Origin: Cyanidioschyzon merolae | Taxonomy: Eukaryota | Assembly (NCBI GenBank): GCA_000091205.1 | Contig: AP006502.2 | Length of the DNA: 64,000 bases | Strand: one strand, 5' to 3' | Part shown: piece by piece, positions 3,774 to 51,390 of the stretch | Numbering within the stretch: the first letter of the stretch is position 1 | Layout of the letters: each line of letters opens with the position of its first letter | Notes under the pieces: model-generated | Told to the model about the DNA's origin: nothing | Seen by the model: the letters and a program-made list of their open reading frames with translations, nothing else | Database searches by the model: none | Translations under genes and position numbers: made by a program

Positions 3774-4419
3774 ATTCATTGTATGCCTAAGCGTTCCGTG
3801 CTCGTCGGATCGCTGAAAACGCCCTAATATGACAGTGTCTAACCTGACGGTGATTGCACCCATGCCAGAATTGAGTGGAACAGGTCTTCCAATGTGGACG
3901 TAAACACGTACGAGAGGATCGATTCCAGTTGTCACCAACGCAAGCCATTGCAGGCGTTTTCTGCGACTGCTTCCTTTCTCTCTCTTGTATCGGGTATCAA
4001 GTACGTCGGTCTCCCACTGTCCCTCGAGCTACGTTGCCAGAAGTCGAAGGATGCTGGTAGCAAAATTAAATGAAGTCCCGATTACGCAGTTTCCGGTCGT
4101 TGTTGGCGCAATTCATGTACATGCGGGAGCTTCGATCTAAGCGCCGCATATTATTTTCATCTTCTTTGCGTGCTACCTCGGAACGCGCTTCGCCTGGATT
4201 TCGTCGGGTGTAACTAAGCGTGGACCACAGCGCTCCTCTAGGACTCGCCAAGTCAAGCGCAAAAGTGTACCTGATTGTTCAGCGCATTCTCTTGACGGGC
4301 ACAGAAGGCTGGCCTCGATGCCCGCTATGTTTCCGCGTCTGATGCCGTTCCGGAGATTGCAGGCTTCTGCAGAACAATTGCCGCAGCACGTACTCTGTCC
4401 GCTGTAGGTGCAAGCGCAC

Positions 4420-4620
4420 ACTCTTCCATTCAGCTGAGGTTTTGTGGAAGTCCATCGTATGCATGATGGGGCAAGTCGATCCATTCCGATCCTTTTATGC
4501 TCTTTCCAAAGCGATGACGCACGCTCCAGTGAACGCGATCATTGCGATGACTGAGGCCGAGTCTGGTTCGCTTTTCAATGAAACTAGTATCGTCGAAATT
4601 CTCTAAAGGCATACCCCGTG
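4420..4620 (-). repeat. Dispersed repeat family R, degenerate copy in inverted orientation.
   Basis: The plus strand at ~4490-4580 aligns to the reverse complement of 12070-12160 (...gatgacgcacgctccagtgaacgcgatcattgcgatgactgag...). It encodes a short peptide MTHAPVNAIIAMTE, matching the THAPLEAI-AMT motif of the other copies. Confidence 0.5.
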
Positions 4621-7188
4621 GAATGCATTACTCTGCTGCTCTCGGATGCCATTTGGTTGGCGATCTTATCGAAAACAGGTTTTCTTTGAACGACATCGAT
4701 TATTTGACTTGACGAATTCACGAAATGATCGGCATGAATTTGTGAGCAAGTCGTCGTGAGACAGCACCGAGATTTTTCCATTCCCGCCAAGGAAGCAGCG
4801 CGAATTGCGGCGTCTATGGGTCGCCCTGAAACAGGTAAATCAAAAAGATGAAGATTGCGTGATATGAACGTGCAACGTACAGGGAAAGGAAAGGAATAGA
4901 CTCTTGAACGCGAGAGTTGCATAATAATAACGGTCATGTCATGAAATCTGGTTCGAGAGCGAAGCGAATTAACTAGTGTCTGCTAAAGTAACAAATTCAA
5001 GCTGCGAGCAGTCGAAAAAGTCGCTCCGAAAGGACGCCGGAGAATCCTACAACCATCCATGAATCCGTATGCCCCAGTTGCGGCAGTCGGAATGACGAGA
5101 GTGTGTATCAGAAATGTTCGGAGAATACGTCGAATGGCAGAAACAGGGCGAGCACTTCAGTGTAACAATCTAACCCGACACGCTTACAGATGACGCGACG
5201 ACAATGGCCAAACTTGGTCTGATGCGCGCTTTCGTATTCATGGATATTCTACTCGAACCCTCTTTGCAATCCTTTTCCACCTCATGCGCGTCGGTACGCC
5301 GGCAAGCGTCCAGGCTGTGGAACGCATGCTCCCATTTTAGGTTCAAGCAGCATGCTTTGGGATGAAAACGCCCCCGTGAATCCATGATGAGCAGTAGAAT
5401 AGAAAACTGAATAAAGGGAATGGCTTTGGCTGCAGACCGAACGTCCGCTTGAAGAAACCCACATGGAATTGGTATACAGGCCCACGAAACGGAATTTTAT
5501 AGTGCAAAATCAAATATTCGAATCAGACTTCTCCCACGGCGTCGCTGCAGCAGTCTGTAATCAGGGACGAAACCACGGCAACTCCCCAGATCCGTCTGAG
5601 CTTCGACATCCCCACAAGAGGCTTGCCTTCCGAGACGGAATTTCGATCTATCCAGCATCGTCATATGCGCCGCCGCCGCTATGGCCGCTATCGCCTGCAG
5701 AGACATGATGGCGTTGTGGTGCTGTGAACTGCTTCAGCACGGAAAAACTGAATGGAATCATCCGGAAGCGAAAACAAGTTGCTACGTTCGTGCCGAGAGC
5801 GCCACTTGCAGTTTGAATACAGGCAACGCTTCTGATGATGTTTTGCTTGCGGCAACATGTGCCATAACCCCGGTACCACTGCAACGTGGGAGAAATGCTT
5901 CAAACTTGGACCCTTTCGAGACACGATCTCCGAACCCGTTTCGCCAGTTGAAAGTGGCTGTGCATCTTTTGGGCTCGAAGAAACATAGAGAGTCAAGAAG
6001 CTGCACTCTCCGTCGGCAAAGAGACGAACAAGACATGCATACGAGATCATAGACGTTGCATAGTCTGCAACATTGCTGCCTTCGTTGGGCCCAAGAGGCG
6101 AATCGCTGTATGGTCCGACACCGCAGTTGCCATTCGTTCAACGTTCTCTGCTAATGTTCTGGACGCTGCTCATTCGCTGTCTCTTTTAACCTGAGGCTCA
6201 CTCTAGAATAGGAACTGTACACGTGAGTTTCGAATACGAGGGGTATCCATCCGCAATCGCTCCCAAGGTTCTACAAGACAACTGGCAAGAAGAACCTAAT
6301 ACGTAACGTTCTTCCGGACAGCGTTCTTGCTCGGTGCAGTCAACGCCCGCTGTGCTACTATACTCTGTGACACGCAACGAATAAATAAATAGGCCTGAAA
6401 AGGCGATTTCTATTCTGGTGTCGTATGCAAGAACACGAGGCTCGTCTCGCAGCTGAGTATACCTCAGTGAACGATAGTCTCGCTGACGTCGATTCCAAGG
6501 ACAGCTTCACAACGGAGACGCCGTCTAGGTGCACAGGAAAAGCTTGTCCAGTGAGCCCATGGTGACAAGCTCCCCAGTTCGTCGTGGAATCAGTGACCAG
6601 CTGCGCTATGAAATAACCAGTCAGCAGCAAAGAGCCAAAGCGGTTACAAGTCCAGAGCCGAGTGCTCGAAATTGCTTGACAGGGTGCTCTCTCGTGCCTC
6701 TGCCTTCAAACGGCTCCTGCAGTCACTTAAAGTTAAGGAAGCAGACTGAGTGAGCTCCAAAAGCCGTGCGTGAGGCTCAGGGAACCGAAAGTACCCCATC
6801 AACCGAGACGCACCTCGTGCGCTACAGGCACCGGCTGTAGGAAAAGAAAACTTCGTTGAGCAACGTGCCTGCGCTAGGCAGTCAAGCGAGCAGGGAACTT
6901 TGCCGTCTCCACCTCTACCGCAGCCGCCGTACAGCAGCTTGCTCTATATGAACGCTACAAGATAGCTAGCGCGGAGTACCCATGCGCCAAGGTTGCCGCA
7001 GTGCCCCTCAAGGTCACCACCGGACTGCTCCGAGATGCCGGAGCAGCACGGGATTTCTTGCAGGCGCGCAGCGTACACGTTATCGCGTTGCTACCACTCC
7101 AGGGAAGGCTGTTTCAGGGCGGACTTGTAGACGGACCAGCACAGCTTTGAACTTGACAATCCCGTGAAGCAAAGGTGCGTTTGCGCCG

Positions 7189-10800: not shown

Positions 10801-11989
10801 CGATTTTGTGCGATTCTAATCGATAATTCCAGTTGCGACTTTAGCGTACAGTGGGCACTCGTGCCCGCTGATACAAGCGGGGAAGTAGAGAATGAAACAG
10901 AGGCGAATACAAGAGATGATGCTCGGTACGCTGACCAGACGTCAAATGGCGAGGGAATCGAAGGCAAGAGACAGGGTGTGATGTGATCTCACCAGCAACC
11001 GAGCGGAAAAGCACTCTCTGTAGCCGCATTTTAGCAGCTCGATCAATGTCCGGAAATACCTCGTGCTTCTTGAGCATCTAGCGGCGCTGCGTCTAGCAAA
11101 GTTTCAAGGGAGTCTTTTCGCACTCTATTCGGCATTGTGCTAAAACGTTGAAGTGCTCGAAGTGAACTATCAGTTCCCAAGCGAGATCGCATTCGAATCC
11201 CGCCCGAAGCAGGGTCCTGATACATGGCGGTTCAATAATCCAGAACGGCTGGGGCGCCTTTTACGTACACCGGGCACAATTTTTACGTGCTGTTGGCATA
11301 CGACTATGATGTTCCACGACTTGAAATTACTGAGTATATTCTTAATCGCTCGTAAAAGCACATGGTTCGTTAACGAAGGTGAGCCCCTTCCCCAGGGCTC
11401 GCCCGTGCAGGACAAACACGCGCGAGCGAACGCCACGCTCTACTCAGTTCAAAATGGAGTACTGAACTGCTCGCTCTTTTCCTGCAATTGGATCTTTTCC
11501 AGAACTATTTTCTGAATGAGCAGCCCCAAAATTCGAAGTACAGCAATGAGCGCCTACGGATTTACAGCTAGTTCAAGGAAGCTCCGTCGTTGGTTCCTAC
11601 TGGTTCCTTTGAAGCTCTGCCACTGGAATTCGGTGCTTCAACGAAAGTAAGATGATCGATTCGCCACTACCTCGAGCACGAGCTCCCAATACAATCGACA
11701 TTAGCATTCAATTCACACGCTCTAGCCTAGACTACTGCACTTTCCTTGCACATCCCATGCTCAAATCTACGATTCTTCTTGAATCTTCGACCATTCTGTG
11801 CCAAAGCAGCTCGTGGGCACTGCGCTTGGCACCGCTGGATTGAATACCAAAAAATCAAGTACTTTCATTGGGGACTTCTTCACAGGCGCATTCCGAAACT
11901 GCACTGAATATGCGACGCCAAATAATCGATTCCACTTAAAGGACAAATCCATCGCTGTTTGTGAGCATTCAGAGAACCGCATTCGACAG

Positions 11990-12350
11990 CAGCATGGCAT
12001 CAAGTACGGATTGTATGCTCCCTGAGGCCCCCATCTCTCCTGTTTGAATGGAAAAGTGTCTTCGACTCCGACTTGAGTCATCGGAGCGATCGCTTCCAGT
12101 GGAGCATGCGTCACGGCTTTGCATATAGGCGTATACACAGACAGAGAATTCTCGAGTTGTTTTGCAGCCTGGATTTTCCTTCCGGTGTATTCTTCATCAA
12201 GGACAAGACGGTACTCCGCAAATCATCTAGTAACTTGAATAGGATGCGCTTGCGTGTGCAGCAGGCAGCGTACCCGCCGAAAGGATCGCGCTGCTGTTGC
12301 CCGTGATCGTTGGTAACCGCAACAGGCGCGGAATCGGAGGCCAGCATCGA
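11990..12350 (-). repeat. Dispersed repeat family R copy. Minus-strand ORFs 12111..12347 and 11767..12138 carry the conserved THAPLEAIAPMTQV and GK-x-LQ segments.
   Basis: About 300 nt align at roughly 65-75% identity with 30040..30350 and with the 46830..47050 / 49550..49770 segments. Contains a GCGATCGC palindrome. Confidence 0.55.
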
Positions 12351-12966
12351 GCGGAGCCTCCTGTACCCGCCACAGGCACATGTGCCGGGCGATGGAGCAG
12401 GCGTTCACGCGCATCAGGGACGTCCCCGGAGGACGGATGTGCTCGACATGTGGGAACACCAAACACAGTCAAGTGTCACCGCTGCGATGAGCGCACCGAT
12501 GCTATATCAAGTGAAGATCCTGATGGCAAGCGACCAAAATTTGTCGGCGCTGCCTGAGCATGAATTGCGTCGTTAACAGCTGGAAGCAAAGAAATCGGTA
12601 CATGAACGCTGCCATCGCCATGCCCGGTTTTGTGACAAGTCAGCTTCAGGAACTAGAGAGTCCGACGTTTTGAGCCAGAGATACGAGAGCGAAACGGGTA
12701 ACAGTCGCAGCAGAAGCGAGTACAGGCGAGTGTTGATGACAGTGCGCGGAGACTCCAACCTCTTGTGTGCAGGCCCGAGTTAAGGACGTGAACCTGTCCC
12801 ACCATAGTCCGGTAGGGGTAGAGCACGGACGCAAGGACGTGCGTTCGTGGCAAGCAGGTTGGGCGTCTCGTCGAACGGTGCAAGTCTGCCGCGCGGAACG
12901 AGTGCGACCATTTCCAAGCGCCTCTTCCTTGCCGTTTCCCGCGAACGTCGTACGCGGGACGGCTGC

Positions 12967-12971: not shown

Positions 12972-12984
12972 ACAGAATCGAACA

Positions 12985-19500: not shown

Positions 19501-20660
19501 AGCGCAGCGTCGCTTTCCCACGGCGAATCGCTCCTCTTGCATAATGAAGAACTGCACGACACAGAATGCTTTCGCACAGAACAGCTTCTGGAAAACCGAC
19601 TCCATGCGATGGAGTCAGACACTTTCGTTATTCCCTAAAATACAGGGTTTGCAACTATGTCATGCGTTATCCATCCGAGCTCGTTTCTGGGTCATGGAGC
19701 CGAATCCTGCCCGTGTATTCACCACATACCCGAGACAAGTGCCGTCAGCGCTAGCTCCCGGATGCTAACGAACCACGGATTGTTGGCGCGTTTCATTGCT
19801 CACAAAGGAAGCCCGTCAGCAGATGATGCCCGATGCGTATCGAAAGCGCCTCGTCCATCCCGGCCTGTGTCGAAATCGATTCGCATATTGTGCCATTAGC
19901 AGAGCAGTTTCCGCTGCCCACTTCCCCGACAAACATGCTCCGTAATGAGGCAGATGTGCGTGCATCGCTAGCGACTCGAGCGCGTCTCGCAGCTTTCGCT
20001 GTCCACACATCAACAAGGCGCCCCAGCACCGGGGCTGCTCCGCAGGTCACCACAGGGCTCTGCGGTCGCTTGTGGAACCCTTGTTCTGAACCTCGCTTCC
20101 ATTGAAACCACAGCGAGCACCCGAAAATACCCAAAACATTTCACAAATGAATAGAGGTCCGCGGCGATAGTGTCACCGCCAGGTCGCTACGAGTAGAAGC
20201 GGCTACGCTGCAACACAAGCGAGACTCCGTCGAGAGCTGCACGCCACGGCCCTGAGGAAATAGTCGGAGACAGACGCCACTAACAGGCACTTCGAATACT
20301 GGAAATCTTGTCGATCCATGCCACATTTACGCCTAGAAAACATCAGAAGCAGTTAACGAGTGAGCACATGGTATGTAACCGGTGCTTGGTGCTTGCACGC
20401 GTTTCGCCTGTATGTTGCAGTGAAGCGCGGCAACGCCGTGCGTGCATCCAACTGCTAATTCTGATCAGTCTCTATGAGACGCTTCCAGGCGAGGCCTATG
20501 TTGCATCCCGTAGGGCGCCCCGCTGGATGCCATGAATGCCGACGCGTGAACGTCCCTGAATCCAGCCCGAGGGCTTCGTCTGCACCTACCGTTTTGATCC
20601 AGAAGAACCCTGGACACATTCTCGAGTGCGGCATCGGAACCAAGATCCGACTGCGCCGCG

Positions 20661-21119
20661 TCAGAATACTATAGAACACTGGGCTGCTCGCTCTGTTCCT
20701 GCCTTGCGATATGTTTCCAAACCTTTTCGATATACAGTCTCGACATTCACATTGTGGTAAGCGCGGATGACGGATTCATGTGCAATGCTAGGATTCATGG
20801 TCATGTTTTCGAAGTGGCTGATTCGGCGCTTTGCAGCTGGGATTCGTTCTGTAACCAGAATCGTGATGAGCCGCAAACCCATCGAACACGAGTTCCTAAA
20901 ATAACCGATATCGTTCGCCAATACATATGTTTGTGCATCCATGCTCCTGCTCTCCGCATATATAGCATGCTCGGATACAGCATTCTTCAACTGTTCGATC
21001 TTTCCGTTCCGTGGTAACTTTTGGGAAGCAGGTAGCAGTGCGCAACATTGTGTAGAGGTGAAAGTATACTCGACTTGGTCGCTGGACGACATCCGCACAA
21101 GCGTATCTGGAAAGTTCAT
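20661..21119 (-). CDS. Hypothetical protein (152 aa, ATG start), no recognisable domain.
   Basis: ORF only. Confidence 0.2.
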   Translation of the reverse strand: MNFPDTLVRMSSSDQVEYTFTSTQCCALLPASQKLPRNGKIEQLKNAVSEHAIYAESRSMDAQTYVLANDIGYFRNSCSMGLRLITILVTERIPAAKRRISHFENMTMNPSIAHESVIRAYHNVNVETVYRKGLETYRKAGTERAAQCSIVF

Positions 21120-22146
21120 TCACTGACCTTGTCACGGCACATGAAAGACTCCTTTCGAAAGTCAAATATGCCTCTCTTCGGCGCCAGCGACGAACCGGCA
21201 TTCGGCAGAAGCATTGTACCGCTAGGGCACGATGCTCTTAAAGGATTTCGCCTTCCCCATTTCCATGAAACATGGTCTTGGACTCGGAGCCCAGTCGTCT
21301 CTCCCATCGCTGCTAGTGTAGAATGCGCCACTGTTTAGAAGAAGAGTGCGTTGATGGATGGAAGTTTCTTGACTTTTCATGCAGCATGGATATTCAGTGT
21401 GGTACTTGTGCCATCATGCACATCAACGTGTCCCGCAGATCCTCTATCGACTGGAAGAAAGTGCGCTTGTAAATGCAGCGGATAGCGTACTCGGGGCAGG
21501 TATCGCGCCGAAGAAGCCTGTGAGCTTCGGTATGGAACCGGGCACGGAAACGGTGCAGGACACCGAGGCGAGCCTTCTGTGCCCGTCATAGGCGTGCGCC
21601 GAATGATAAACCAAAAGCTCGCGTGCCACAGGGCGACTCTCTCAGAGAATAGGGTGCGATGGACCTAAATGAGTACCTGACTATATTCAAGTGTGATAGC
21701 TGCGAATAACGCACCGAGGCTGCATGCATAGGAGATGACAATGGAAAGCGATGCCTAGATATCAACTACTGTCTGTGCATCAAATGCAGCGACAAAAGCC
21801 GGAAGCAGCGAAATCAGGAACTGAACGCAGCCACCAACAACGTTCGAATCGTGACAACGGAGCTGAAGACAAGGGCAGACCGACGAACGTAAAGCCGGAG
21901 ATAAGACAAAGGAAAACGAAGCCGTCCCAGATAAAGCTCGCAAAGGCTGGTCGTCATGACATGAGGAAAAGACCCAAACTTTACGGTGTACGCTCGTGTT
22001 CGCAAAGTGGGCCCGCTCCATTTCATTCTGATAGGGGTGCAAGCGACCTCTGGTCCAGACCTGAGGCAGATGCGCGCGATTGCCAGACTGCGTCTCATGA
22101 ACGCAGCGTATTGACTGTGGACGTCAGCGCACGTCAAGCTCCGCTC

Positions 22147-28214: not shown

Positions 28215-30039
28215 GCTGGGAACGACTGACACTTATGGCGCCTCCACAGAACACTAAACCAGTTTTTGCTAAACGCTGTGAGAAATCCGTATCGCCTTCG
28301 TCTCCGAGCTTCCACGGCTCGAAACTTCGTCAGCGCTGTAAGTTACGTCCACTTCGTGCGGCCCTCTTCGCGAGTGCTTGTGCGTCTCACGCACAAGAAA
28401 GAGGTGTACGGAAGCAGATGCGTATATCCGACAAGACTCTTTCAGAAGAGAGTTGTTCAGGAGCTGATAAACTAAGCTTCAAAGCTTTGCTGCTGCTTCC
28501 TTTCCAGTACACGCCACGAAAGAAGTGTCTCAGAGGAGTCTGTCGAAAGATGGCAGGACTCGTACCGACTGGCGTGGTGGAGCGGGATCCCGGGGCACGG
28601 CCCCCAGCGAGTCGGTATTGCGCGATCCGGCAACACAGGCGGACGCACAACAGACGCGCTTCACACATGTACATGACTGGAAGGGTGTTCAGGGAACCCG
28701 TCGATGATCACGCGACTGAGATCAATGGCTCAGAAGACAACAACCGAGGCGTTCTATACAAACATCCAGATGAACTCAGAGGTGCACTCACTGGTTGGGA
28801 CAGGCTGAACCTGCATTCGCTATACTAGGGGATTACCAAGCCCGCAGCGGGGTCCGCTAGACCGCCTCGACAGCTACCTGGGTTTATGCGCTCTAGTCAC
28901 GACACTTTGATCGAGACCTTTTCGAGCAGAGCGCATCTCGGATGCGGTTCAAATGATTCACCGATACCCGACTCGTCAACGCATTTCAGAGTCTGCAGGG
29001 ACGGCACGGCACCCGTACGGTCGCATCGCCTTGAGTGAGCTCGAATGCAGATCAGTATGGCTATCGGGACAGGAGCGAGCGATTTGCTTCGCCATTCGCT
29101 TGGTAAGCGGCATCGCCGATCAGAACGCGATATGCATATCGAGTTCTCGCATCATCGAATCAAGATGCTCGCTATGATTTCGTCGGGGAATATGGCGATT
29201 TGCGGCAGGTGCCACCAGCGTCGTGTTGGAAAAAGATGAACGAGTACGTATCCATTTGTTCGATGTGAGGCACCTTGTGTTCTAGATCACTCGTCCACAC
29301 TTATTCTGAGGTTATTTTGAATCCAAAAACGAGTTGCAAGCGATGTCATTCGGCGCGGTTGCATCTACTAGACCATCCATAAATCTTTGTGGGTATTGCA
29401 TTTCCGGGGTGTCCGCCGCAGACGCAAGTACGCCGCTTTGATTCGTCCGCTCGAACACGGTGATCCATCGATCTGTGAGCTAGACACCACAAGTCGATTG
29501 ACATATGACTCCAGACGGTACGTGGTTAGGATGGAACGCTGGGCTATTCGCTCTGTTCCTGGCTCGTGATTTTTTCCGTATTTGTCTGATGCACAGCCTT
29601 GGAATGCGAGATACAGCAATAAAAACTTTCGGACGCTCATGCAATCCATGGATGCTCAGCTGTCTTTTCGGCATGACTCCGCCAATTCTTTACCACTAGA
29701 TTTCGATACAGTACCGGAATCATGATGATGCGCAATGCCCTGCAACCAAGATTTGTAAAATGAGCCATATCATTATCCAGTGCTTACGTAAGAGTCTCCA
29801 AACTTCTCCATGCCTAATAGGTCGCTCGCTAAAATCACGCATTCTTCAAGTTTTCGATCTTTCTCTTTCAAGGCAACTCGCGGGAGCAGCTAGGCTCGCC
29901 ACTGGATTGAGGAGAAAAAACTCAACTCTATCTTTTGGCGACTGCTTGACGCGCTCAAGTTGCGTGCAAACTGTACTTGTCCGACAGAGTAATCGATTCT
30001 GTTCGAAAGATAAATCCTCCACGCTTCGTGGCCATCGAC

Positions 30040-30350
30040 GAAACGGGATGCCTTACCAGAATGATACCTCTCAGGTGATATTCGCCCACAGGCTCCGGTC
30101 TCTTCTGTTTGTAATGAAAAGGGTATTGGACTGGGACTTCAGTCATCGCAGTGATCGTCTCGAGAGGAGCGTGCGTCCCCGTTTCGCGTGACAACAACAG
30201 AGACGGATCATAAATTTCTTGACTTGTTCTCCAGTCTGGAGTTGCTTTCCGGCACTTGCTTCATCATGGACCACACCGTGTCCTATACATCCTCGATCAA
30301 ACGGAACAGGGTGCTTCTGCGGGTGAAGTGAGCAGAGTACTAGCAAGGAA
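30040..30350 (-). repeat. Dispersed repeat family R copy.
   Basis: Aligns to 11990..12350 (tgtttgtaatgaaaagggtattggactgggacttcagtcatcgcagtgatcg... and ...ttgttctccagtctggagttgctttccggcacttgcttcatcatggacc...). Minus-strand ORFs encode THAPLETITAMTEV and a GKQLQ segment. Confidence 0.55.
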
Positions 30351-31189
30351 CATCACCCAGAAGAAGCTCTTGATCGAATGTAACTGGCCAGGTGCCGAAA
30401 AAAAAAGCAGAATATCGAGGGCGGCTTAGTGTAACGGCCGAGAGCATTCGCTAAGCGAAGAGGCAAGCGGTCACGTGCCACAGGATAGCCCTCAAAGAAG
30501 GAGCCATTAAGGGCATATGCGAACACCTGATCACATCCAACTGGCACCTCTACCGAGAGCTTACCCAGATTGAACATTAGAAGAAGAATCACATTGTCGG
30601 TGAAGTGTAGATCGCCACTACCGCCAGTACATGAAATGCGACAACAACAGTCCGAAGCAGCAAAACCAGGATCTGAACACTGGAAACAACATTCTTCCAT
30701 AGCGGATAGCCGAACTGGAGGAACAGGAGCGATCGGTGAACGCTACGTAGCAGATACGAGAGAGGAAACTGAAGCCGTCGCAGAACAAGCCCGCATATGC
30801 TCGTCTTGATGGTCGCTGGATGCTACATAAACTATAGAGTACAAGACCGTGTCAGAGGTCCCGTTTCATTTTTTGTTCTGACAGGAGTGGAACCCGCTCT
30901 TGAGGGATGCCCCGGTTCCCAGTTACCGCGTTGCCGTGCTTTCCGCCTCGATGGAGTGCCCCGCGGGTTGCCGTCCGGCCGCCGTACGTGTTCGTGCGCA
31001 CGCAAATGGCCCCCGCCAGGATCGTCGCGCGATGCGCATGCATCGACGCGTGCGTGCATCTCGGCCTCGGGACGCATCCCGAGTGCTACCAGAGATTCCA
31101 TTTCCATTGAGCATTTTGTTGCATACGCTGACACAACACGAACGTGTATCTGTTGGGTGTAATACTGAACAGCTATTTCGCTTTGAAAC

Positions 31190-39509: not shown

Positions 39510-42500
39510 CGCGGCGACGAGTTGGCGCTCGAAGCGCGTGGGACTTTGATTGACTTGTTCACGAGGAAACGCTTACGGCTACACAGCGGGGCTAGCAATG
39601 AAAGACGCCCAGCGGTCAGCCGCGTAGGTGGTCGTCTTCGTGCAGCAGCTACGAAAGACGGCTTGCTGGTCGAGTGTGCCAAAGCGCACCGTGCAAGAAC
39701 GCCGGAACGACGAAGCAACTGCAGGGCGGCAAGATATAGCGTCCTGAGGTGCACCGGCGCTCGTCAAGCCGGTGCCAACGAGCGCAATCTTCAATAAGGC
39801 CCCCGTATAGCACCCGCGCAAACTTTCGCTAAGCGCTTCGAGAATATGAGAGATGTTTGGGCTTGCGCTGCTGCACAGCGGCTCGATGCGGAACGCGTTC
39901 TGTGCGCAACGAACATCGCCTCGCTGCACACGGAAAGAACAACGAATCCAAAAGATGTAGCGAACTGAACGTGATCCATGCGAATATTAACAAACTAAAA
40001 TGATGCTAGATGGATGACACAGCGCGCAGAGGCTGCATCGCCAGGGCCGTTGCGCGCTACGTATCCGGGTAGCGAGGTCCGGGGAAATCGAAACGATGTC
40101 TTCCGTCCCTGGAAGCGTACGGGGTATAACCCGCCGCTGGGGCGCGGCTTATACCCAGTTGGACATCAAAAGGGACGCGTCCGATGAGATAACTCGGGCG
40201 AACACGCGGACGCTTGGTTCACTTGCCACTTCTGATGAACACCAGCCTATGTAGGCATTTTCTGCTACTGCTTCCGATGGATCTCTCTGATTTCAGGTCT
40301 TAAATGCGCAGATCTGCCACATGCCTCCAGCTCTGTAGTCAACCGTCGAAGGGTACTGGCGGCGGCTTTGAGGTCCCGATTTCGCAGCTTCCGGCTCTTG
40401 GCGACGCATTTGATGCATAGACGGGCGTGCCGATCGACACTTTGCTCCGATTTATCAATTGCTTTGTATACAGCTTCAATGCACCTTTCGCAGCGTTCAC
40501 AGTGAGCTTTGGTCAGGTGTTTTCATATGTCCATGACGCTGCTTCTTCCTGCTCCGAGCGTTCGCAAGTCGTGCATGAACGCGTGCTTCTCTGCTCGATC
40601 TATGCCTTTGCCGGGCACAGAATGCTCCGCTCGGTACCGTTTGCAATTCGGCATTCGGTGATGTCGCCGAAGATCACGAGCTTCGTCTGGGCATTCCCGT
40701 CGGCGAGTATGCTGTTCGCTGCACGCTCGGGCGTGTGCCTCTTCACTCGATAACTCAAGATCCGCTACCTCGTACGCGCTTCGTTTTCCGCGCACGCTTC
40801 CCATAGGACATGACGATGAGCGTGACGGACTCTGAGGCACCTGAACCACTCGTGGGCATCGTGTCCATACGTTCCACCGGCGTACAACAATGCGGACAAG
40901 GCTTCTGGGGCTCCCTTCTGCTTCGCGCACTCATCGGGCCACTCTGTCATTCGTTTATCTCCGCAAACACGAAGATGAGAGGCGCGCGAATACACCTCAC
41001 CATTGTTGGGGCAAGTCGGACGACTGGAAACTCGTTGCTCAAACCCGTTGCCGATAACCGCAAGTGGTCGGATTACTCTTCGGATCTCACGCAAAAGCAA
41101 GCGTAGAGGTTCTCTCTCCCTTCAGTCAGGCTTGTGCAGATCACATTGAAAGAAAACCAGTTCGCGAGACAATGCATCCGTATTGCTCGTTGTTCCTCCG
41201 TAAATTTCCTGTTCTGAGCAGGGGCACGTCTGGCCTCAGACAGATCCTTAAGCCTGCGGGATCTTCGCAGTTGCTGACGATGGATACGCTTGCGCTGGTG
41301 GTCTCGGCGGAGGACACGACGTCTCCTCGTGGTCGTGGTACTGACCTCTCGTTGCTCCGTTTCTCCTTCCCATTCGTAATTTCCCTCGCCTTTTGCCGCC
41401 AATTGTTCTTACAGCGGTTCGTGAGCGCCTTCGAATGTACTAGCGAAAGGTGCATAGTTCGCTTCATACCGTCCTTGGTCTTCATTCGCTGCGCATCTTT
41501 TTCGACACGCATGCTCCCCGATGGACGCCTCTGTCCTGCCGTTGGACGGGCAAACCCGTCCACAACGAATGAAAAAACAGAAAGATCGAGAACATGAAGA
41601 ATTTGTATTTAAAGACCGCTAAAATGAATCAATGAAGAAGCGTCAAGGCTTGTACGCGTGCATTGAATAATGGAGTCGAATACGTTGCGAACCCGCGGTC
41701 GCGGGCCTCGTGTGTCATCTTGATGACGGTTGCGTAACGAATTCCAATCGAAGAGCGTGTAAAGAACTACTCGGAAAAGTCGCTCAAGACTCCAAAAATC
41801 GGCCTATGAACCTATAAGCGCTCGTCACCAAACTTGCAGTGTCGAGCCTCTGCACCTAGGAAAAGTTCGGAGAAGCATCGCAAAGCACGAACGTAGCGTC
41901 CAGTTCGGCGCCCGTATACCCAATTGGACACGACTCAGATCTGTCAGGTTTGATCCATGAAATCCAATCTTCAACGCTTTCTCACGGTACACGCCAAGGC
42001 GTCAAGCTGGTACCGCGGGCATCGCGCGCGGTAGCCCAGCGCCCTGCACCGCGGCACGCCAGCGAGGCGCTGGTGGCAGTGCGCTGCTGCCTACGTGAGG
42101 CGGCGGCTGCACCGCTGCACCCGTTGGGCTGCGCGATCGGCATTGCAGCGAGCGCCCATTATCGGTGCGGACGCGCGCGCGCGCACACGCATTCGCCAGG
42201 GTGCCACGAGCCGGTGTTACCGAGTACCGGTGCGGCGACTCGACGCTTGTACTGAAGCCTTCGTATAGGCGCGCGAAGTGAACCAGGCCGATTCAGCCCA
42301 TATATCGCGTAACCTTGGCCTCGGTCACTGCTTTTTTTCGGTCTCTAGGGGCAGTGGTGAGAGCGGAAATACGACGTTCGCGGGCTGCTCGCAAGCGTTC
42401 GAGCGTTTGCGCTGCGTGCCTCGCCCAGCAAAGCGCGCACACCAAGCCGTGAGCACCGCCCCTCGGAGGTGATCATTAGCACTGCGCTTCCAATTCTACG

Positions 42501-44726: not shown

Positions 44727-44915
44727 TCAAAGCGTCTGGGCGTTGGGACCACGCTTCCTCCCTGGCCCCGTGGCGACGTTCACAAAACGGCGGTTGTACT
44801 TTGCTCTCAGGTTCGCTCTTCCGCGGGGCTTTTTAGGTTTCTCCTGCTTCGCCACTTTCGGGGTTTGTGCCTTGACCTTACCCGCACGCGCCAGTGATCC
44901 GTGAACCTTACCCAT
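44727..44915 (-). CDS. RPS30: 40S ribosomal protein eS30 (Fau-like).
   Basis: [60 protein letters not shown] has near-full-length identity to eS30. ATG start. Confidence 0.85.
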
Positions 44916-44984
44916 TTTGTAGCGAGTTCCAGTGCGCTAACCAACTATACTCGAGTGCCACAAAACCTGCGCGATAGCGCAACG

Positions 44985-45225
44985 GGTGCGCTTCCGCTGG
45001 TCCAGTAGCGCGGCGCGGCGTATTTGCCTAAATTCAACAAGTCAATTGACTTAAGGATCTGTTTTCGGCAGTGAGCGCTGGTGCAGCGCAGAAGCGCAGC
45101 GTATTTTCCCTAAATTCAACAAGTCAAATGACTTAAGGATCTGTTTTCGGCAGTGAGCGCTGGTGCAGCGCAGAAGCGCAGCGTATTTTCCCTAAATTCA
45201 ACAAGTCAATTGTCTTAGACAAGCC
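44985..45225. repeat. Tandem repeat of about 2.6 units of ~82 bp. Each unit carries the 14-nt perfect palindrome AAGTCAATTGACTT.
   Basis: The unit cgtattttccctaaattcaacaagtcaattgacttaaggatctgttttcggcagtgagcgctggtgcagcgcagaagcgcag is repeated at 45019, 45101 and 45183 (the last partial). It lies 70-310 bp upstream of the eS30 start codon. Confidence 0.8.
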
Positions 45226-46209
45226 TGATGGTGCGCGACGTTCTCCGAATCGACGTCTCGGTAGGCGCACCTCCAGATCCGGCAGGCAGAGGACACGATG
45301 AGCATGCCGATTTCAAAGGGAAATACGCGACCCTGAACAATTGTCGATTTGCCGGGAACCAGCAGACATCGCGTTCGAAACATACACTGTTGCTGGTGCC
45401 GCGTTCCATGCAAGACGACGGCATGGCATGACAGCATCAAGCGTGCATCTCGAACGGACGCGGTGTATTTGCGTTAGAGGCATGGCATAGACTTCGACCT
45501 CGATGGTGTTCCACGCCCAGGTACGTGTCGTCAAATGCATTTTCGTGGTTTATATCAAACGCGTTCGTAGTGCGTTCATTTGAAGAAATCAATATAATCC
45601 AACGGATCTGGTAAGGACATTGGAAGTCGAGGATCCTCGAGGGCCGGGGGCCTCAGGCCTCAGGCACCGGAAAAGCAGAACGAAAAATCCTCTCCTCGCC
45701 GACCAACGAGCGAAGAAAAGCAAGCGATGAAGGAGAAGAAGATGGGTGGTAATGGTCCAAAAAAGGTGTCCACCGGACTGGGCGATGATGAGACTGTCGT
45801 GGCACAGCGGGCACAAGTTCTAGCGATCCTCGCCATGACGAGTTCAGCCAGAGGCAATAAACACAGGAAGGTCGTGAGCCGCGACTTCAATGCCGTCATC
45901 AATATAAGATGATATGTAGTGCTGAGGACGAAAACTGCGGAGCTGACGCGTGCGAGCTTTGTGGGCCAGCCTTCTCGGCTCGAAGTGTGCCTGGATACAC
46001 TGAAGCCGATAGCATCGGGTCGGTCAGAAAAGTCTGGGAGGCATGTGCACATGGGCAGATATATTTACCTCCCATGGCCAGAGCGCGTTTCCCGTTATAA
46101 TGGCCGTGTGTATGAAGGACTGTTTTCTTAGGGCTCGAATGGATACCGAATTCGTAGGGCCCTATCGTTCGCATGCGTGTCTGAACTAGCCCTCAACACC
46201 TGTATCAGC

Positions 46210-47410
46210 TTAAAATCGGATATTGTATTGCTCGCTCAGCGTCTGTCTTGCGATTTTTTCCTAGATGCATTCGATGTACAGCCTCGACAATCAGATTGCC
46301 GGAATAAACGGCCAAGCATGTATAGTACGTGATAGGATGCCCGGTTGCTTTTTCGAAGTGCCCCCGTTGACGCTGTGCCGCTGGCGTTCGTTACGTACCC
46401 GGAGACTCGCGATGATGTGCGACGCGTTCCGATCAGTGATTCCCAAAATCAACCGGTTCCATGATCAGGTTCATATGCACAAGACTGCGTGATACTCCGC
46501 TCCTGACATGTTGGACGCGCTTACCACGCATGCGTCTCTTTTTCGATATTGTCTGTTTCACGACAACTCGTGGGTGCAGCAACTCGTGCCGCTGGATTGA
46601 CGACGACGACGACGACGACGACGACGAAATAAAAAACTCCATGTCGTCCCTTGGCGACCATACAGAAGCTCATGCACAAAGTTGTACGGATTTGATGGTG
46701 TCCAAATCATCGACTCCGATTGAAAGACAGGTCTGCCTCTGCTTTGTGGCCGCCGCCGCCGCCGAGCCGGCACATGACTGACGCAAAATACCTCCCAGGG
46801 CGTGCGCTTCCACAGGATGCCGTCTCTTCCGTTTGCATAGAATCGGGTGCTGGGCTCGCACTCGAGCCATCGCAACGATCGCTTCCAGTGGAGCGTACGC
46901 CAGCGTCTTGCACGAAACGGGCGTAGATGGACCTGAGGAACTCGACTTGCTCTCCAGCGTGGATATTCCCTCCTGGACTCGTTTCGTGATGGACAATATC
47001 GCGTTCCACCAATCCTCTATCGAATGGAACGGCGAGCGCTTTCATGCGTAGCGGGCAGCGTTCTCGAACAGAACATCGCGCGGCAGGCGCCCGTGAACGT
47101 AGAACGCGACCCCAGGGTCGGCAAACGAGGATGGGATCGAGGCGAGCCTCCTGTTGCCGTCAAGGCCACGTGGGGAGCGATGAACCGAGCGTTCACGCGT
47201 CACGAGGCAGCGATCGGAGTGGCAGCTGTGGTGGTGAACAGGTGGCAGCACCTGACCACAGGCACGTGTCACTGGTGCGAGGGGCGCACAGCGACGCTGC
47301 ATACAAAGAAGACGGAACTGGCAAGCGCGGTATCGATTGCAACTACCGTCTACGTATGGAAAGCGTTGACATTAGCCGACTGCGGCGTCGTCGGGGCTTG
47401 AACGTCGCTG
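46210..47410 (+). repeat. 1.2-kb direct repeat, copy A (about 98-99% identical to 48918..50197). Contains (GAC)9, a (GCC)5 run and a copy of dispersed family R at ~46830-47050.
   Basis: Identical ORFs appear in both copies (e.g. 46265..46492 = start of 48972..49499, and 46670..46996 = 49388..49714). Homology starts at ttaaaatcggatattg and ends at ...cggggcttgaacgt. Confidence 0.85.
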
Positions 47411-48176
47411 CCTCGCCCTCGATCGCCGACCTCAGCGAGCAAGCATGTGCGTCCGGATGCAGCCGTGTCCACTCGCCGCGCTGCGACACGCTTCGATGCC
47501 AAACCGGGTACTGTGCCCCATTAGAGCCCAATCAGCAACGCACCCAAAATCTCGCGGATGCTGCGCCCTGTAGGCTGGAGTCGGCCACAATGCAACGCAC
47601 CAACCTGGATGCGCTCGAGCATACGTGCACCCTTGGTGGCGTGCATCGGAAACGTCCACTGCGTATTTAGACAAACCTCAAATTCTGAGCATCGAGACAG
47701 GCCGAGAACTGCCAAAACATCGTAACTTGCAATGAAAGAAACTGTAATCTCTCGGCTGGCTGCCACCGCCAATCATCGCGCATTCCGGGATAATCTCATA
47801 GGCTGGTTCCCCGATGCTTCTCAAAGAATCCGAGCCAGGTACCAAGTGCGGCTGGCGCCAGATGCTCCATGGCCGGGGCGTCTTCATCGCACAGCGTGTA
47901 TGCAGCGACCGCACCGGCGCTATAGGCGCCATTGCTGTCGCTCTCGGCAGGCACTAGGCACACACGATAGGACGTATGAAACGACCAGAATATCCGAGAT
48001 GAAATATAGGTCATGTAACATGGAGGTAGGGGTTTGACAGATACCTCACCTCGCACTGAAAAAAAAAGCCAAAAAGAAAAGAAAAACGTGCATAATCGGA
48101 GAACGCTGGCCTATGGAAACGTTTCGTCCATGAAAAAACATCATTTGCCAGCGGACGCAGACGCCACAGACGTCCG

Positions 48177-48842
48177 ATGTTTCCTGCTTTGATTCGTGGT
48201 GCAGCGCGCTTCTCAGAACGTCTTCGGGGTGACTTGAGAAAAAAGATGCAGCACCAAGCCCCGAAGCCGCTGATTCTCATCGATATGGACAACACGATTG
48301 TATCATTTGACGACGCGTTCGTGAAACGCTGGAAGGAATTGGATCCACACGCCGACGAGGCCCTGATTCGGAAACGGCAGCACTTTGAACTCGAAGAAAA
48401 CCTGCCACCCGAAGCTCGGGCAATAGCGGAGAAAATCATGGGGGAGCCCGGGTTCTATGCCTCGTTTCGACCACTGGAAGGAGCTATCGTGGCCCTGCGC
48501 GCGATGATCGACCGGTCCTGGGAGGTCCGGCTGTGCTCGGCCCCGCACCCGCTACAGTGGGAAGACTGCGTGCGAGACAAGTACAGCTGGGTCCGCGAGC
48601 ACCTGGGTAGCGATTGGCTGCACCGCATTATGATCGTGCGTGATAAGACCTGTGTTCGTGGTTCTGTGTTAATCGACGACAAACCCAGTATATCGGGGTT
48701 CTATCCCGATCCCGAGTGGCTCCACGTCGTTTTCGATCAGCCGTACAACCGCGACGTGGAGGCGCGAGCGCGCCTGAGTCACTGGTCCCAATGGGAAGAA
48801 GTGCTTACACCGATCCTGAAGGCTCAAGGGTTTTCTGTTTAA
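48177..48842 (+). CDS. 5'(3')-deoxyribonucleotidase (NT5C family, HAD superfamily).
   Basis: ATG start. LILIDMDNTIVSFDDAF (DxDx[T/V] HAD motif I), EHLGSDWLHRIMIVRDKTCVRGSVLIDDKP and SHWSQWEEVL are collinear with cytosolic and mitochondrial dNT-1/dNT-2. Confidence 0.8.
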   Translation: MFPALIRGAARFSERLRGDLRKKMQHQAPKPLILIDMDNTIVSFDDAFVKRWKELDPHADEALIRKRQHFELEENLPPEARAIAEKIMGEPGFYASFRPLEGAIVALRAMIDRSWEVRLCSAPHPLQWEDCVRDKYSWVREHLGSDWLHRIMIVRDKTCVRGSVLIDDKPSISGFYPDPEWLHVVFDQPYNRDVEARARLSHWSQWEEVLTPILKAQGFSV

Positions 48843-48917
48843 AGAAACGGAGATGAATGGGCCCAGCTGGCAACGTTTGACCGGTGAGCGAGCCGGCTCT
48901 CCAGCTAGATGCCAGAT

Positions 48918-49303
48918 TAAAATCGGATATTGTATTGCTCGCTCAGCGTCTGTCTTGCGATTTTTTCCTAGATGCATTCGATGTACAGCCTCGACAATCA
49001 GATTGCCGGAATAAACGGCCAAGCATGTATAGTACGTGATAGGATGCCCGGTTGCTTTTTCGAAGTGCCCCCGTTGACGCTGTGGCGCTGGCGTTCGTTA
49101 CGTACCCGGAGACTCGCGATGATGTGCGACGCGTTCCGATCAGTGATCCCAATATCAACCGATATCATGATCAGGTTCATATGCACAAGCCTGCGTGATA
49201 CTCCGCTCCTGACATGTTGGACGCGCTTACCACGCATGCGTCTCTTTTTCGATATTGTCTGTTTCACGACAACTCGTGGGTGCAGCAACTCGTGCCGCTG
49301 GAT

Positions 49304-49345
<42 letters not shown>

Positions 49346-50197
49346 AATAAAAAACTCCATGTCGTCCCTTGGCGACCATACAGAAGCTCATGCACAAAGT
49401 TGTACGGATTTGATGGTGTCCAAATCATCGACTCCGATTGAAAGACAGGTCTGCCTCTGCTTTGTGGCCGCCGCCGCCGCCGAGCCGGCACATGACTGAC
49501 GCAAAATACCTCCCAGGGCGTGCGCTTCCACAGGATGCCGTCTCTTCCGTTTGCATAGAATCGGGTGCTGGGCTCGCACTCGAGCCATCGCAACGATCGC
49601 TTCCAGTGGAGCGTACGCCAGCGTCTTGCACGAAACGGGCGTAGATGGACCTGAGGAACTCGACTTGCTCTCCAGCGTGGATATTCCCTCCTGGACTCGT
49701 TTCGTGATGGACAATATCGCGTTCCACCAATCCTCTATCGAATGGAACGGCTAGCGTTTTCATGCGTAGCGGGCAGCGTTCTCGAACAGAACATCGCGCG
49801 GCAGGCGCCCGTGAACGTAGAACGCGACCCCAGGGTCGGCAAACGAGGATGGGATCGAGGCGAGCCTCCTGTTGCCGTCAAGGCCACGTGGGGAGCGATG
49901 AACCGAGCGTTCACGCGTCACGAGGCAGCGATCGGAGTGGCAGCTGTGGTGGTGAACAGTTGGCAGCATCTGACCACAGGCACGTGTCACTGGTGCGAGG
50001 GGCGCACAGCGACGCTGCATACAAAGAAGACGGAGGCGGCCTCTGACCGCAGGCACGTGTCACTGGTGCGAGAGGCGCACAGCGACGCTGCATACAAAGA
50101 AGACAGAACTGGCAAGCGCGGTATCGATTGCAACTACCGTCTACGTATGGAAAGCGTTCACATTAGCCGACTGCGGCGTCGTCGGGGCTTGAACGTT
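48918..50197 (+). repeat. 1.2-kb direct repeat, copy B. Carries an expanded (GAC)13 and an internal ~60-bp tandem duplication at ~49990-50060.
   Basis: Near-identical to 46210..47410. The GAC microsatellite is longer (49304..49345 versus 46599..46626). Confidence 0.85.
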
Positions 50198-51390
50198 GCC
50201 ATCAACACGCTTACAATGCGAACAATGGAACTAGAGCGGAGGGAATGACCAGCGTATTTCGTACGGGAACTAGGAGACAGGAGACGGAAGCAGTTGCAGA
50301 AATACCCCGCAAAGGCTTTTACTGATAATAATGGGAGAATACCCAATTGTAGCGTGTACGTCCTTGTTAGCTTACCAGTTCCATTTCATTCTGGTATGGA
50401 TGGAGACGGATACCCGTGGCGTCATGAAATGACGCCAGCGACCCCAACAGCATCTGCTGTGCAATCATGGCAGGTTGAATACAGGTTTACCGCTCGGTTT
50501 GGCCAGCTGGCTCCGATGCTGACGTACACCGTTGGCCATTCTTCGCGTGATGTCGAGCCTGAAGAGGCAACACATGAGGCGCCCCTTCTGCTCAGCAGGA
50601 CGCCTACGGGCGTCTGATGCGCGCGCACCAGGGAGAAAGCGCCGCCCACAACGGCGGCGATGGAAGCATGCGCTTCGCTTTCGCAATCGAATATGCTTAT
50701 AAGCAAACGGGAACGCAGCATCGGTATCGCCACATCAGTGCACGCGTTCGTTGTCACTGCAGAGACGCACCCGGCGCTGGTGGAATCGCAGGCTCAAAAC
50801 TCCGTTCGACATGCCCTGGAAACGTTTTTGCCAACGTGGATTTGCTTCGATACGGATGCACGCTGCCAGTCCACATGCAGGAGCTATCGCGCCGGGCATA
50901 ACTTGCACGACGAAGTGACACCAGCGTCGATTGCCAGTGATCAAGTCGCATCACTGGCATCCATCGGCTGCCGCCAAAAGACGAACCCAGAGGGTCCATC
51001 CGGCAAGAGACACGTATTTGATGCCGCAGCTCTGGACAAACGCCCTTCTTCGCCGTTCAGTGCTTGCATTGCGAATCTTACAGCGGGGTATCACTGAAAA
51101 CCTCGAAACAGGCGAATAGATTTAAGATGGAGTCCTCGACAATCAGCTACGCGAACAAACACTCGTACAGCACTGGAAGGCCCTTGCACTGCTGCTTCCT
51201 GTCATTTCGTGCGATGCCGGTTGCAGCGTCCACGGCCAGCGAAGCAAACGCCAGAGATACCCGCATCTTCATGCGTTCGGTGTGATCGAGAGCGTCGTCC
51301 GACAGCCAGCATGGAGCATTGAACCTTGGCGTTGCGTGGCAGTGCGTCCAAGGTCCATTCCTGCGCAATTACCAACGACCCGGAAGACCA

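Follow-up and report, generated by a model that had tools for sequence, protein, structure and literature searches.

The two near-identical 1.2-kb direct repeats on either side of a 5'(3')-deoxyribonucleotidase gene of Cyanidioschyzon merolae are young members of a dispersed repeat family, which we call R. Judged by its sequence, R is a Cyanidioschyzon-specific, non-coding interspersed repeat, and the two repeats (A and B) are its copies around an ordinary nucleotidase gene. The explanation we favour, and regard as probable, is that A and B are R copies in both spacers around the ancestral single-copy gene CMT031C, that they owe their identity to recent copying, most likely by ectopic gene conversion, and that they act as recombination substrates. 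All coordinates refer to the window, a stretch of 64,000 nucleotides from chromosome 20 of C. merolae 10D, which was compared with contigs from metagenomes and from a related lineage.

Using a repeat finder, blastn and global alignment, A was delimited to positions 46206-47408 (1203 bp) and B to positions 48913-50199 (1287 bp), which gives a start-to-start distance of 2707-2718 bp. The aligned copies show 13 mismatches, together with gaps of 12, 73 and 1 bp; identity is 98.9% without gaps, and 97.9% by BLAST with gaps. The length and identity of this match far exceed chance, and the near-identity claimed in the initial annotation is real by all three methods. The reported difference in (GAC) unit number, 9 versus 13, was recovered by Tandem Repeats Finder as (GAC)9.7 at 46599..46627 in A and (GAC)13.7 at 49305..49345 in B (both + strand); across the young R copies of relatives, the unit number varies from 6 to 13. 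An internal tandem duplication is likewise present in B as described, but its size is 73 bp and not ~60 bp. It consists of two units with 93% identity at 49962..50107 (+ strand; 49962-50104 by Tandem Repeats Finder), and the unit is present once in A (47244-47316). In metagenome relatives the duplication is carried by the copy in the A position, next to the element T described below, and not by B.

The sequence on either side of A bears no relation to that around B, in line with the initial annotation, but R itself runs past 50199 in B. When a family HMM was used, R homology was found to outrun the identical stretch, covering 46202-47412 at A and 48908-50409 at B, the latter extending ~210 bp beyond 50199. 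Copy B (48908..50409, + strand) is full length; its segment 48913-50199 is near-identical to A, and 50200-50409 is a tail absent from A. An HMM of the tail made from the old copies alone gave a match at 50201-50408 (E = 1e-27) and none after 47408. The 5' end of copy A (46192..47412, + strand) is natural; its 3' end is truncated near R position 1203, with homology stopping at 47412, so that A is without the final ~210-300 bp of R. Upstream of 46206 there is a stretch of 14-15 bp, ACACCTGTATCAGC, which is common to A, to the Z-linked copy R' (see below) and to one old copy; since it also occurs at R' and at the old copy, it is part of the R element. The first ~14 nt of B are unlike those of A and R'. 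B starts ~70 bp 3' of the stop codon of the nucleotidase gene, and from its position the 3' end of the gene probably lies inside B.

The 1.2-kb unit had been presented as a private pair. It belongs instead to a dispersed family of ~1.4-1.5 kb with at least seven copies in the window, although only three copies (A, B and R') are near-identical. Apart from A and B, nhmmer and the family HMM detected five older copies that share the 5' end and roughly the 3' end. Full-length copies are located at 3848..5183 (- strand, inverted), 11444..12829 (+ strand, HMM positions 8-1402), 20655..22049 (+ strand) and 29516..30899 (+ strand, ending ~300 bp upstream of an arsenite methyltransferase gene), and the copy at 40141..41934 (- strand, inverted) carries internal insertions. 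The HMM alignments begin at model positions 2-8, and full copies finish at 1399-1404. The older copies are ~60-70% identical, A and B being the only young members in the window, and the mean pairwise mismatch between B and four old copies is ~0.41 versus ~0.68 in the flanks. More R copies were found on other contigs. The initial annotation had proposed to look for further copies and had reasoned that a common genome-wide repeat would make the pair unremarkable; the five old copies in the window and the others on contigs bear this out in part. Several dispersed copies with shared termini, together with absence from the orthologous sites of a related lineage, characterise interspersed repeats, and R displays both.

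No ORF common to the copies was found among six-frame ORFs or by translated comparison, and neither a 3-base periodicity nor a favoured frame was seen. Pfam searches of the ORFs inside the repeats returned noise only. As to an RNA gene or a SINE, R had no Rfam match at E <= 1, and no tRNA was found in or beside A and B. The ends of the old copies loosely resemble TG...CA, and no target-site duplication is recognisable in these diverged copies; for R, neither target-site duplications nor terminal inverted repeats are established. Presumably R is a mobile element that has decayed or is non-autonomous.

The gene between the repeats is indeed a 5'(3')-deoxyribonucleotidase of the NT5C/HAD family, as had been annotated. 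The ORF at 48177..48842 (+ strand; CMT031C, BAM83061.1) matches Pfam NT5C (PF06941) with E = 1e-21 and 77.9 bits (cut-off 24.8), and its catalytic DxDxT motif reads D-M-D-N-T at residues 36-40 of the translation. According to tblastn, the window holds one NT5C only. Its nearest homologues are found in other red algae (47-76% identity), and an origin by horizontal gene transfer was rejected on this ground. In a related cyanidiophyte lineage (contigs L021-L024) the order SOD-FGase-S30-NT5C-UBL3-ALDH-RB is preserved. The S30-NT5C and NT5C-UBL3 spacers, which in the window span 3.3 kb and 2.5 kb, measure ~1.0 kb and ~0.9 kb there, and these contigs have no R homology. Because the relative has the S30-NT5C-UBL3 order with short, R-free spacers, the gene has kept its ancestral place, and both repeats were inserted in one lineage only. 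As far as can be read from sequence, CMT031C is a red-algal gene that was inherited vertically and has stayed at its ancestral locus.

Several other elements surround the gene. At 45453..46100 (+ strand), ~90 bp upstream of A, lies T (~650 bp), which derives by internal deletion from a putative decayed TnpB/Fanzor-like element. Its segments 45453-45748, 45801-46064 and 45487-46091 match 24223-24490, 26295-26558 and 13243-13827, respectively, and the ORF at 45727-45912 of T contains the motif ...SRDFNAVINIR. The 2.3-kb repeat has no Pfam, PDB or NCBIfam match, and its designation as Fanzor/TnpB-like is based on a RuvC-III-like motif and on the elements described in PMC3627910. R gave no cross-match with the TnpB/Fanzor-like copies at 6-2388 and 24223-26558; the adjacent T alone matches them. 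Between A and the gene lies a spacer (47409..47899, + strand) devoid of R homology. Its part from ~47706 to 47899 shares homology with the 5' region of GLTP, and the rest matches nothing else examined; the homology to the region upstream of the chromosome-19 GLTP gene in relatives covers 47706-48160. Most likely, this spacer is what is left of the original intergenic DNA between S30 and NT5C. It is followed by U (47900..48176, + strand), a ~280-bp element that abuts the NT5C start codon on the 5' side and whose conserved core is present upstream of other genes too. A search for RNA structure in the U core yielded no convincing consensus fold. In metagenomes, the alternative upstream contexts of NT5C start at U or within U, not at A.

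The third near-identical copy, R', lies inverted beside the PRPP-synthetase gene in metagenome relatives; in 10D this gene is 64 annotated genes from the nucleotidase locus. PRPP synthetase (BAM83125) and RNase PH (BAM83126) have consecutive accessions, so their genes are adjacent in 10D. The arrangements PRPPs-tail_R'-R and RNasePH-T-R 5' end are present on contigs. Because there are contigs whose PRPP-synthetase protein is exactly that of 10D, we infer that 10D has R' as well. Compared with A and B, R' is ~98% identical up to R position ~1173, after which its tail is 80% identical to that of B. With its core at 98% and its tail at 80% identity, R' is a mosaic, which points to ectopic conversion. 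The T-R pairs fit the mosaic pattern, with homogenised R and diverged adjoining T: the T beside R' and the T beside A match with 184 bits over 590 bp, a level typical of old copies, while the R next to them reaches 363 bits over 386 bp. The two R copies on contig L001 differ at 11 sites (A and B in 10D at 12), whereas same-position copies across genomes differ at 15-24 sites, with the phasing taken from metagenome assembly. This suggests, as far as that phasing holds, that a copy shares its SNPs with the other copies of its genome and not with those in its position elsewhere.

There is no such mosaic signal at the 3' edge of A, where tail and end HMMs from the old copies find no R past 47412. 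A diverged R tail after 47408, which had been considered from similarity by eye, was not significant and not supported by these HMMs, and was rejected. As the HMMs find no R past 47408 in A, the A/B boundary is no evidence for conversion over simple truncation. Also, the identity of A and R' begins exactly at the 5' terminus of the element, which is compatible with fresh transposition as well.

In the favoured explanation, the near-identity of A and B would result from recent copying among a few R copies (A, B and R') and not from duplication of the gene region. Ectopic (non-allelic) gene conversion, confined to the segment common to the three copies, would be the likeliest homogenising mechanism. 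Copies so long and so nearly identical would lend themselves to homologous recombination: a crossover of B with the inverted R' would generate the ~64-gene inversion haplotype of environmental relatives, and exchange between A and B could delete or tandemly amplify the nucleotidase gene.

Contigs from metagenome relatives contain junctions of this type. NT5C-R-tail_R'-PRPPs was found in five samples (L001, L002, L003, L005, L011) and the reciprocal junction, Z-R-tail_B followed by 62 bp of unique UBL3-side sequence, in L029, while the 10D-type order NT5C-B-UBL3 is present in L006, L007 and L027. Both reciprocal junctions expected of a B x R' inversion are thus seen on metagenome contigs, which is suggestive. 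In L009, NT5C-R is followed by the upstream spacer again, the join expected of tandem amplification. Most metagenome contigs end at R. Since assemblers may misroute through a 1.2-kb repeat with 98% identity, the junctions of the inversion, like the join in L009 and the phasing of the SNPs, are suggestive rather than proof; we take the junctions to represent real chromosomes and not assembly paths. Among the contigs found via S30 or UBL3, all of which break at repeats, none had S30 linked directly to UBL3 with NT5C deleted, and strain 10D gave no evidence of NT5C amplification. That the repeats serve as recombination substrates, the premise of the deletion or amplification put forward in the initial annotation, is plausible in view of the inversion junctions and the tandem join in relatives. 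More tentatively, and with slightly less than even confidence, we propose that the network of A, B and R' under conversion drives natural structural polymorphism, i.e. a ~64-gene inversion on chromosome 20 and relocation or extra copies of NT5C, with junctions in R or in the U core.

Pure recent transposition would account for the data differently: A, B and R' would be fresh insertions of an R subfamily that is active or was so until recently, A would have been truncated at or after insertion, and no conversion would be involved. The exact 5' terminus shared by A and the Z-linked copy, at which identity begins, the sister lineage without R at either site and the difference of only ~1% between young copies are in its favour. 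However, copies of one master should share their tails, and those of B and R' are 80% identical as opposed to 98% in the cores. The divergent first ~14 nt of B, the location of two of the three known young copies 1.5 kb apart in the same orientation, and SNPs that go with the genome rather than with the position (subject to the assembly phasing) also speak against this reading, which we consider unlikely. Less probable still is a local segmental duplication, in which unequal exchange would have doubled a ~2.7-kb unit in tandem (upstream spacer, NT5C and the initial 1.2 kb of R), with later loss of one gene copy. The 2707-2718 bp spacing and the tandem-array-like L009 contig would agree with it, but L009 is possibly a chimeric assembly path. 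Instead of a whole unit repeated head-to-tail, 10D has R alone in duplicate, with a single NT5C and unrelated upstream flanks. A is preceded by T and begins with the 5' terminus of R itself, not with the spacer 3' of NT5C, and a later deletion would need an endpoint exactly at the element boundary. The view in the initial annotation that a simple tandem duplication does not fit is thus upheld.

It is very improbable that a mobile element (an LTR retrotransposon, a TRIM/LARD or a composite transposon) has A and B as its terminal repeats and the nucleotidase as cargo. Although 1.2-kb direct repeats do enclose a 1.5-kb segment, and identical NT5C proteins are encoded beside differing upstream genes in metagenomes, the S30-NT5C-UBL3 position is kept in a lineage without R, which contradicts this reading, and the alternative contexts begin at or inside U rather than at A. 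A and B differ in length and edges, A being truncated, and are not complete, co-terminal LTRs; there is no evident target-site duplication, and the segment they enclose holds a host gene alone, without retroelement content and without a reverse transcriptase, integrase or transposase. The genome paper also reports no LTR retrotransposons in C. merolae (PMC1955436). The annotation had already dismissed an LTR pair, with which we agree. It had named misassembly as a possible cause as well, in the form of a repeat collapsed or wrongly duplicated in the reference. The general risk of misassembly at repeats is the sole ground for it, and we judge it hardly credible: the reference is described as finished and gap-free (PMC1955436), and A and B are separated by 13 SNPs and three indels. 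Moreover, the layout T-A-spacer-NT5C-R was assembled independently from other samples (L001/L028/L045 and L030).

Near-identical repeat copies at the kb scale are commonly homogenised by ectopic conversion, and they give rise to inversions when inverted and to deletions or duplications when direct. Rearrangements at dispersed repeats and concerted evolution are familiar from the delta/solo-LTR and Ty elements of yeast, and non-allelic homologous recombination from human segmental duplications, e.g. the F8 int22h inversion. As in F8 int22h, an R copy adjoining a gene and a distant inverted copy would lead to a large inversion; unlike in the yeast and human cases, the R events are deduced from metagenome contigs rather than from pedigrees or experiments, and R is no LTR. 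Leishmania forms extrachromosomal amplicons where genes are flanked by direct or inverted repeats. The direct repeats A and B around a single gene resemble this arrangement, but here nothing indicates circular or linear amplicons, or a changed copy number in 10D, R is a TE-like family and not a genome-wide amplification system, and the red alga is unrelated. In C. merolae itself, a ~3.2-kb interspersed element with ~253 copies and a WSV486-like truncated ORF has been described (Nozaki et al. 2007, PMC1955436), as have the Fanzor1 element CMe-1A and its short relative TE-N2_CMe (Bao & Jurka 2013, PMC3627910). R is similar to the described C. merolae repeats in being dispersed, old, diverged and intergenic, and T, which lies next to copy A, is a CMe-1A-like derivative. 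Unlike CMe-1A and TE-N2_CMe, R has no detectable sequence in common with the TnpB/Fanzor-like copies of the window, and it is ~1.4-1.5 kb long without an ORF.

As a dispersed repeat serving as a recombination substrate, the A/B pair is an ordinary kind of feature of modest population-genomic interest, and what is known of how such repeats behave is unchanged by the findings on A, B and R'. The interest comes mainly from the wild relatives, which have apparently rearranged their chromosomes at these copies. C. merolae is a model alga prized for its finished, repeat-poor genome and its efficient homologous recombination, and the R density in the window, about one copy per 9 kb, is above what the usual description of "0.7% transposons" suggests. 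Since a gene between 1.2-kb direct repeats is a natural substrate for pop-out or amplification, those who engineer or resequence this locus should expect instability. If the inversion haplotype is true, R copies would mark natural breakpoints and could be used as markers of population structure and recombination in the Cyanidiales. If the conversion network is true, the 'simplest' eukaryotic genome would be structurally dynamic in the wild through recombination between dispersed repeats.

The nucleotidase gene is flanked by near-identical direct repeats, as the initial annotation had proposed. Repeat finder, blastn and global alignment agree on a copy A at 46206-47408 (1203 bp) and a copy B at 48913-50199 (1287 bp), with 98.9% identity once gaps are left out; 13 positions are mismatched, and the three gaps measure 12, 73 and 1 bp. 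Tandem Repeats Finder confirmed that the 12-bp gap reflects (GAC)9 versus (GAC)13. The largest of the three gaps is due to a tandem duplication at 49962-50107 in B. This too had been noticed before, although its size is 73 bp and not ~60 bp. An assembly artefact is very unlikely, because the C. merolae genome was published as finished and gap-free (PMC1955436) and the order T-A-spacer-NT5C-R, where T is a short element and R the repeat, is reproduced in independent metagenome contigs (L001/L028/L045 and L030). Two minisatellite-like tandem repeats are also present: 82 bp x2.5 at 45013-45217, between the S30 gene and T, where many metagenome contigs stop nearby, and 81 bp x2 at 56971-57132.

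With the region as query, nhmmer, copy alignment and a family HMM yielded five further copies in the 64-kb window. On these matches, A and B belong to a dispersed family, R, in which they are the two young members. The 1.2-kb unit is thus not a private duplication. The additional copies reach only about 60-70% identity with A/B and with one another. These old copies, each found by nhmmer and the family HMM, are located at 11444-12829, 20655-22049 and 29516-30899 on the plus strand and at 5183-3848 and 41934-40141 on the minus strand. All five share their 5' end with A, and full copies have a common 3' end, at about position 50409 in B. B extends ~210 bp past the segment common with A, and a tail HMM trained on the old copies alone matches 50201-50408 (E = 1e-27). 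The same HMM found no tail after 47408, downstream of A, whose last homologous base was placed at ~47412 by an end HMM. With a tail in B and none past A, A is a 3'-truncated copy.

Judged from its sequence, R looks non-coding. No ORF common to the copies was found, substitutions among them lack three-base periodicity, translated comparisons favoured no frame, and R gave no Pfam, Rfam or tRNA matches. The copy alignment established neither target-site duplications nor terminal repeats by which the element could be placed in a class. One old copy (29516-30899) ends ~300 bp upstream of an arsenite methyltransferase (ArsM/Cyt19) gene at 31190-32392, of which 372-, 376- and 400-aa variants occur among metagenome protein clusters.

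R is distinct from the repeats described in C. merolae, namely a 253-copy WSV486-like element (PMC1955436) and the Fanzor1 element CMe-1A with TE-N2_CMe (PMC3627910). Decayed TnpB/Fanzor-like repeats at 6-2388 (motif NRDLNAAISIRKC at 2143-2242) and 24223-26558 (ORF 25627-26556) probably belong to the published CMe-1A/TE-N2_CMe family; Pfam, PDB and NCBIfam gave no matches confirming their identity. T, an internally deleted derivative of ~600-650 bp, is found at 13243-13827 and 45453-46100. Neither T nor the longer copies share sequence with R. The sole tRNA gene of the window, tRNA-Pro(CGG) at 12984-13072 (-), lies between the old R copy at 11444-12829 and the first T. T stands upstream of R in the same orientation three times (window 45453-46100 before 46192; L031 1244-695 before 386-1; L005 2450-1866 before 1313-1), with spacers of ~90, 300 and 540 bp that cannot be aligned. 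This repeated pairing suggests that one of the elements prefers the other as a site of insertion.

The ORF between the repeats (48177-48842) is a 5'(3')-deoxyribonucleotidase, as had been annotated: it matches Pfam NT5C (E = 1e-21) and contains the HAD motif DMDNT. Exact protein look-ups assigned the window to chromosome 20 of strain 10D and the gene to CMT031C (BAM83061.1), which is neighboured by ribosomal protein S30 (BAM83060) and the UBL3-like protein CMT032C (BAM83062). Its closest homologues are from other red algae, which argues against recent horizontal transfer. Contigs of a related cyanidiophyte encode an NT5C homologue with 76% protein identity in the same gene order, SOD-FGase-S30(-)-NT5C(+)-UBL3(-)-ALDH...RB. 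There, the S30-NT5C spacer is ~1.0 kb (3.3 kb in the window) and the NT5C-UBL3 spacer ~0.9 kb (2.5 kb in the window), and no homology to R, T or U, a small element upstream of NT5C, was detectable in the contigs carrying S30-NT5C-UBL3. The added length in 10D corresponds to about T plus A on the upstream side and B on the downstream side. The kept gene order and the short, R-free spacers of the relative thus show A and B to be lineage-specific insertions, one in each spacer flanking an unmoved gene. An LTR element or composite transposon carrying NT5C is excluded, since the repeats were inserted around a gene at its ancestral locus. A simple tandem duplication is argued against because only R is repeated and A begins at the natural 5' end of R, where it adjoins T and not the NT5C 3' spacer. 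The initial annotation had likewise found that neither a simple tandem duplication nor an LTR pair fits.

Metagenome contigs of wild Cyanidioschyzon, ~98-99% identical to 10D, reveal a third young copy, R', inverted relative to B. Its tail adjoins the gene for PRPP synthetase (BAM83125) and its 5' end the upstream region of RNase PH (BAM83126); these genes are neighbours in 10D, 64 annotated genes from CMT031C. R' is a mosaic: as far as R position ~1173 it matches A/B at ~98% identity, and from there its tail is only 80% identical to that of B, though by the family HMM still clearly R-derived. Ectopic gene conversion yields just such a pattern, in which the core is homogeneous and the homologous edges have diverged. 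It would homogenise A, B and R' and would be limited to the segment common to all three, since A stops at position 1203. In agreement with conversion, the two copies within a genome differ at fewer sites (12 in 10D, 11 on L001) than same-position copies across genomes (15-24 sites), although SNP phasing in the metagenome contigs is unreliable. Also in line with it, which copy carries the 73-bp duplication varies between genomes, and so does the copy with a given (GAC)n length. The edges of the three copies differ in further ways. The first 14-15 nt of the element (ACACCTGTATCAGC) are common to A and R' and differ in B. A and R' each lie downstream of a T, and these two T elements score 184 bits over 590 bp against each other, only an old-level similarity, where the R sequences next to them reach 363 bits over 386 bp. 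Pure recent transposition could also account for the near-identity, given that identity between A and R' begins exactly at the terminus, as in a fresh insertion. The diverged edges speak against it, while the A/B boundary is explained equally well by truncation as by conversion. Because of the phasing, this truncation and the identity from the terminus, we hold the overall explanation, in which conversion homogenises the copies, with moderate confidence and regard transposition alone as rather unlikely. The near-identity of A and B is due to recent copying among three family members, probably by conversion.

It had been suggested that the pair could mediate deletion or amplification of the gene. 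Contigs crossing R fall into five classes: T/upstream spacer (10D window, L001, L030); NT5C/B tail-UBL3 (10D window, L006, L007, L027); NT5C/R' tail-PRPP synthetase (L001, L002, L003, L005, L011, five samples); RNase PH side/B tail with 62 unique bp of the UBL3 side (L029); and NT5C/upstream spacer (L009). Of the adjacencies involved, NT5C-UBL3 is ancestral and PRPP synthetase-RNase PH is that of 10D. A crossover of B with the inverted R' would invert ~64 genes and create two reciprocal junctions, and these are exactly what the third and fourth classes show. The main evidence for such a haplotype is L001 (Ga0078972_1000863, 123 kb), which is collinear with window 38163-50034 at 98-99% and then runs on into genes located 64 genes away in 10D (PRPP synthetase, ATP sulfurylase, CNNM). 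The L009 join is that expected of tandem amplification by exchange between A and B. As a 1.2-kb repeat with 98% identity can be mis-threaded when short reads are assembled, the contigs support the inversion in wild relatives short of proof, and L009 is a weak sign of amplification. No NT5C deletion product was found, and contigs reached via S30 and UBL3 end at the repeats. The repeats are plausible recombination substrates, the best evidence being for B with the distant R' and not for A with B.

The identical nucleotidase protein also occurs behind other upstream neighbours: chromosome-19 GLTP (L004 8318-8550), an ABC transporter (L008 3347-3470) and an inverted old T-R pair (L005 2450-2520; also L009, L010). 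For L004 and L005, the change of neighbour occurs within a ~37-bp stretch identical among U copies. Such contexts may reflect true translocations, additional copies of the gene or joins made in assembly. U itself (~280 bp, 47900-48176) lies directly upstream of NT5C and contains a 35-nt core, CGATAGNNCGNAYGAAACRACCAGNNTATCCGARA, at 47965-47999, which recurs at 23587-23621 (-) directly upstream of an AMPK-beta ORF (2 occurrences versus 0 expected in the window). Related copies precede several unrelated genes; in relatives (L041 14627-14903 and 6007-6445; L001 16423-16681) U stands before the genes for ribosomal L12 and ATP sulfurylase and next to GLTP. The core has no convincing RNA fold, and U may be a common promoter module or a small repeat.

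The feature is largely explained: an ordinary, ancestral nucleotidase gene has, in the spacer on each side, one copy of a dispersed non-coding repeat, an arrangement of a well-known kind. In wild relatives, structural variation probably has breakpoints at A and B. The relevance is modest, chiefly for engineering the C. merolae genome and for Cyanidiales population genomics.
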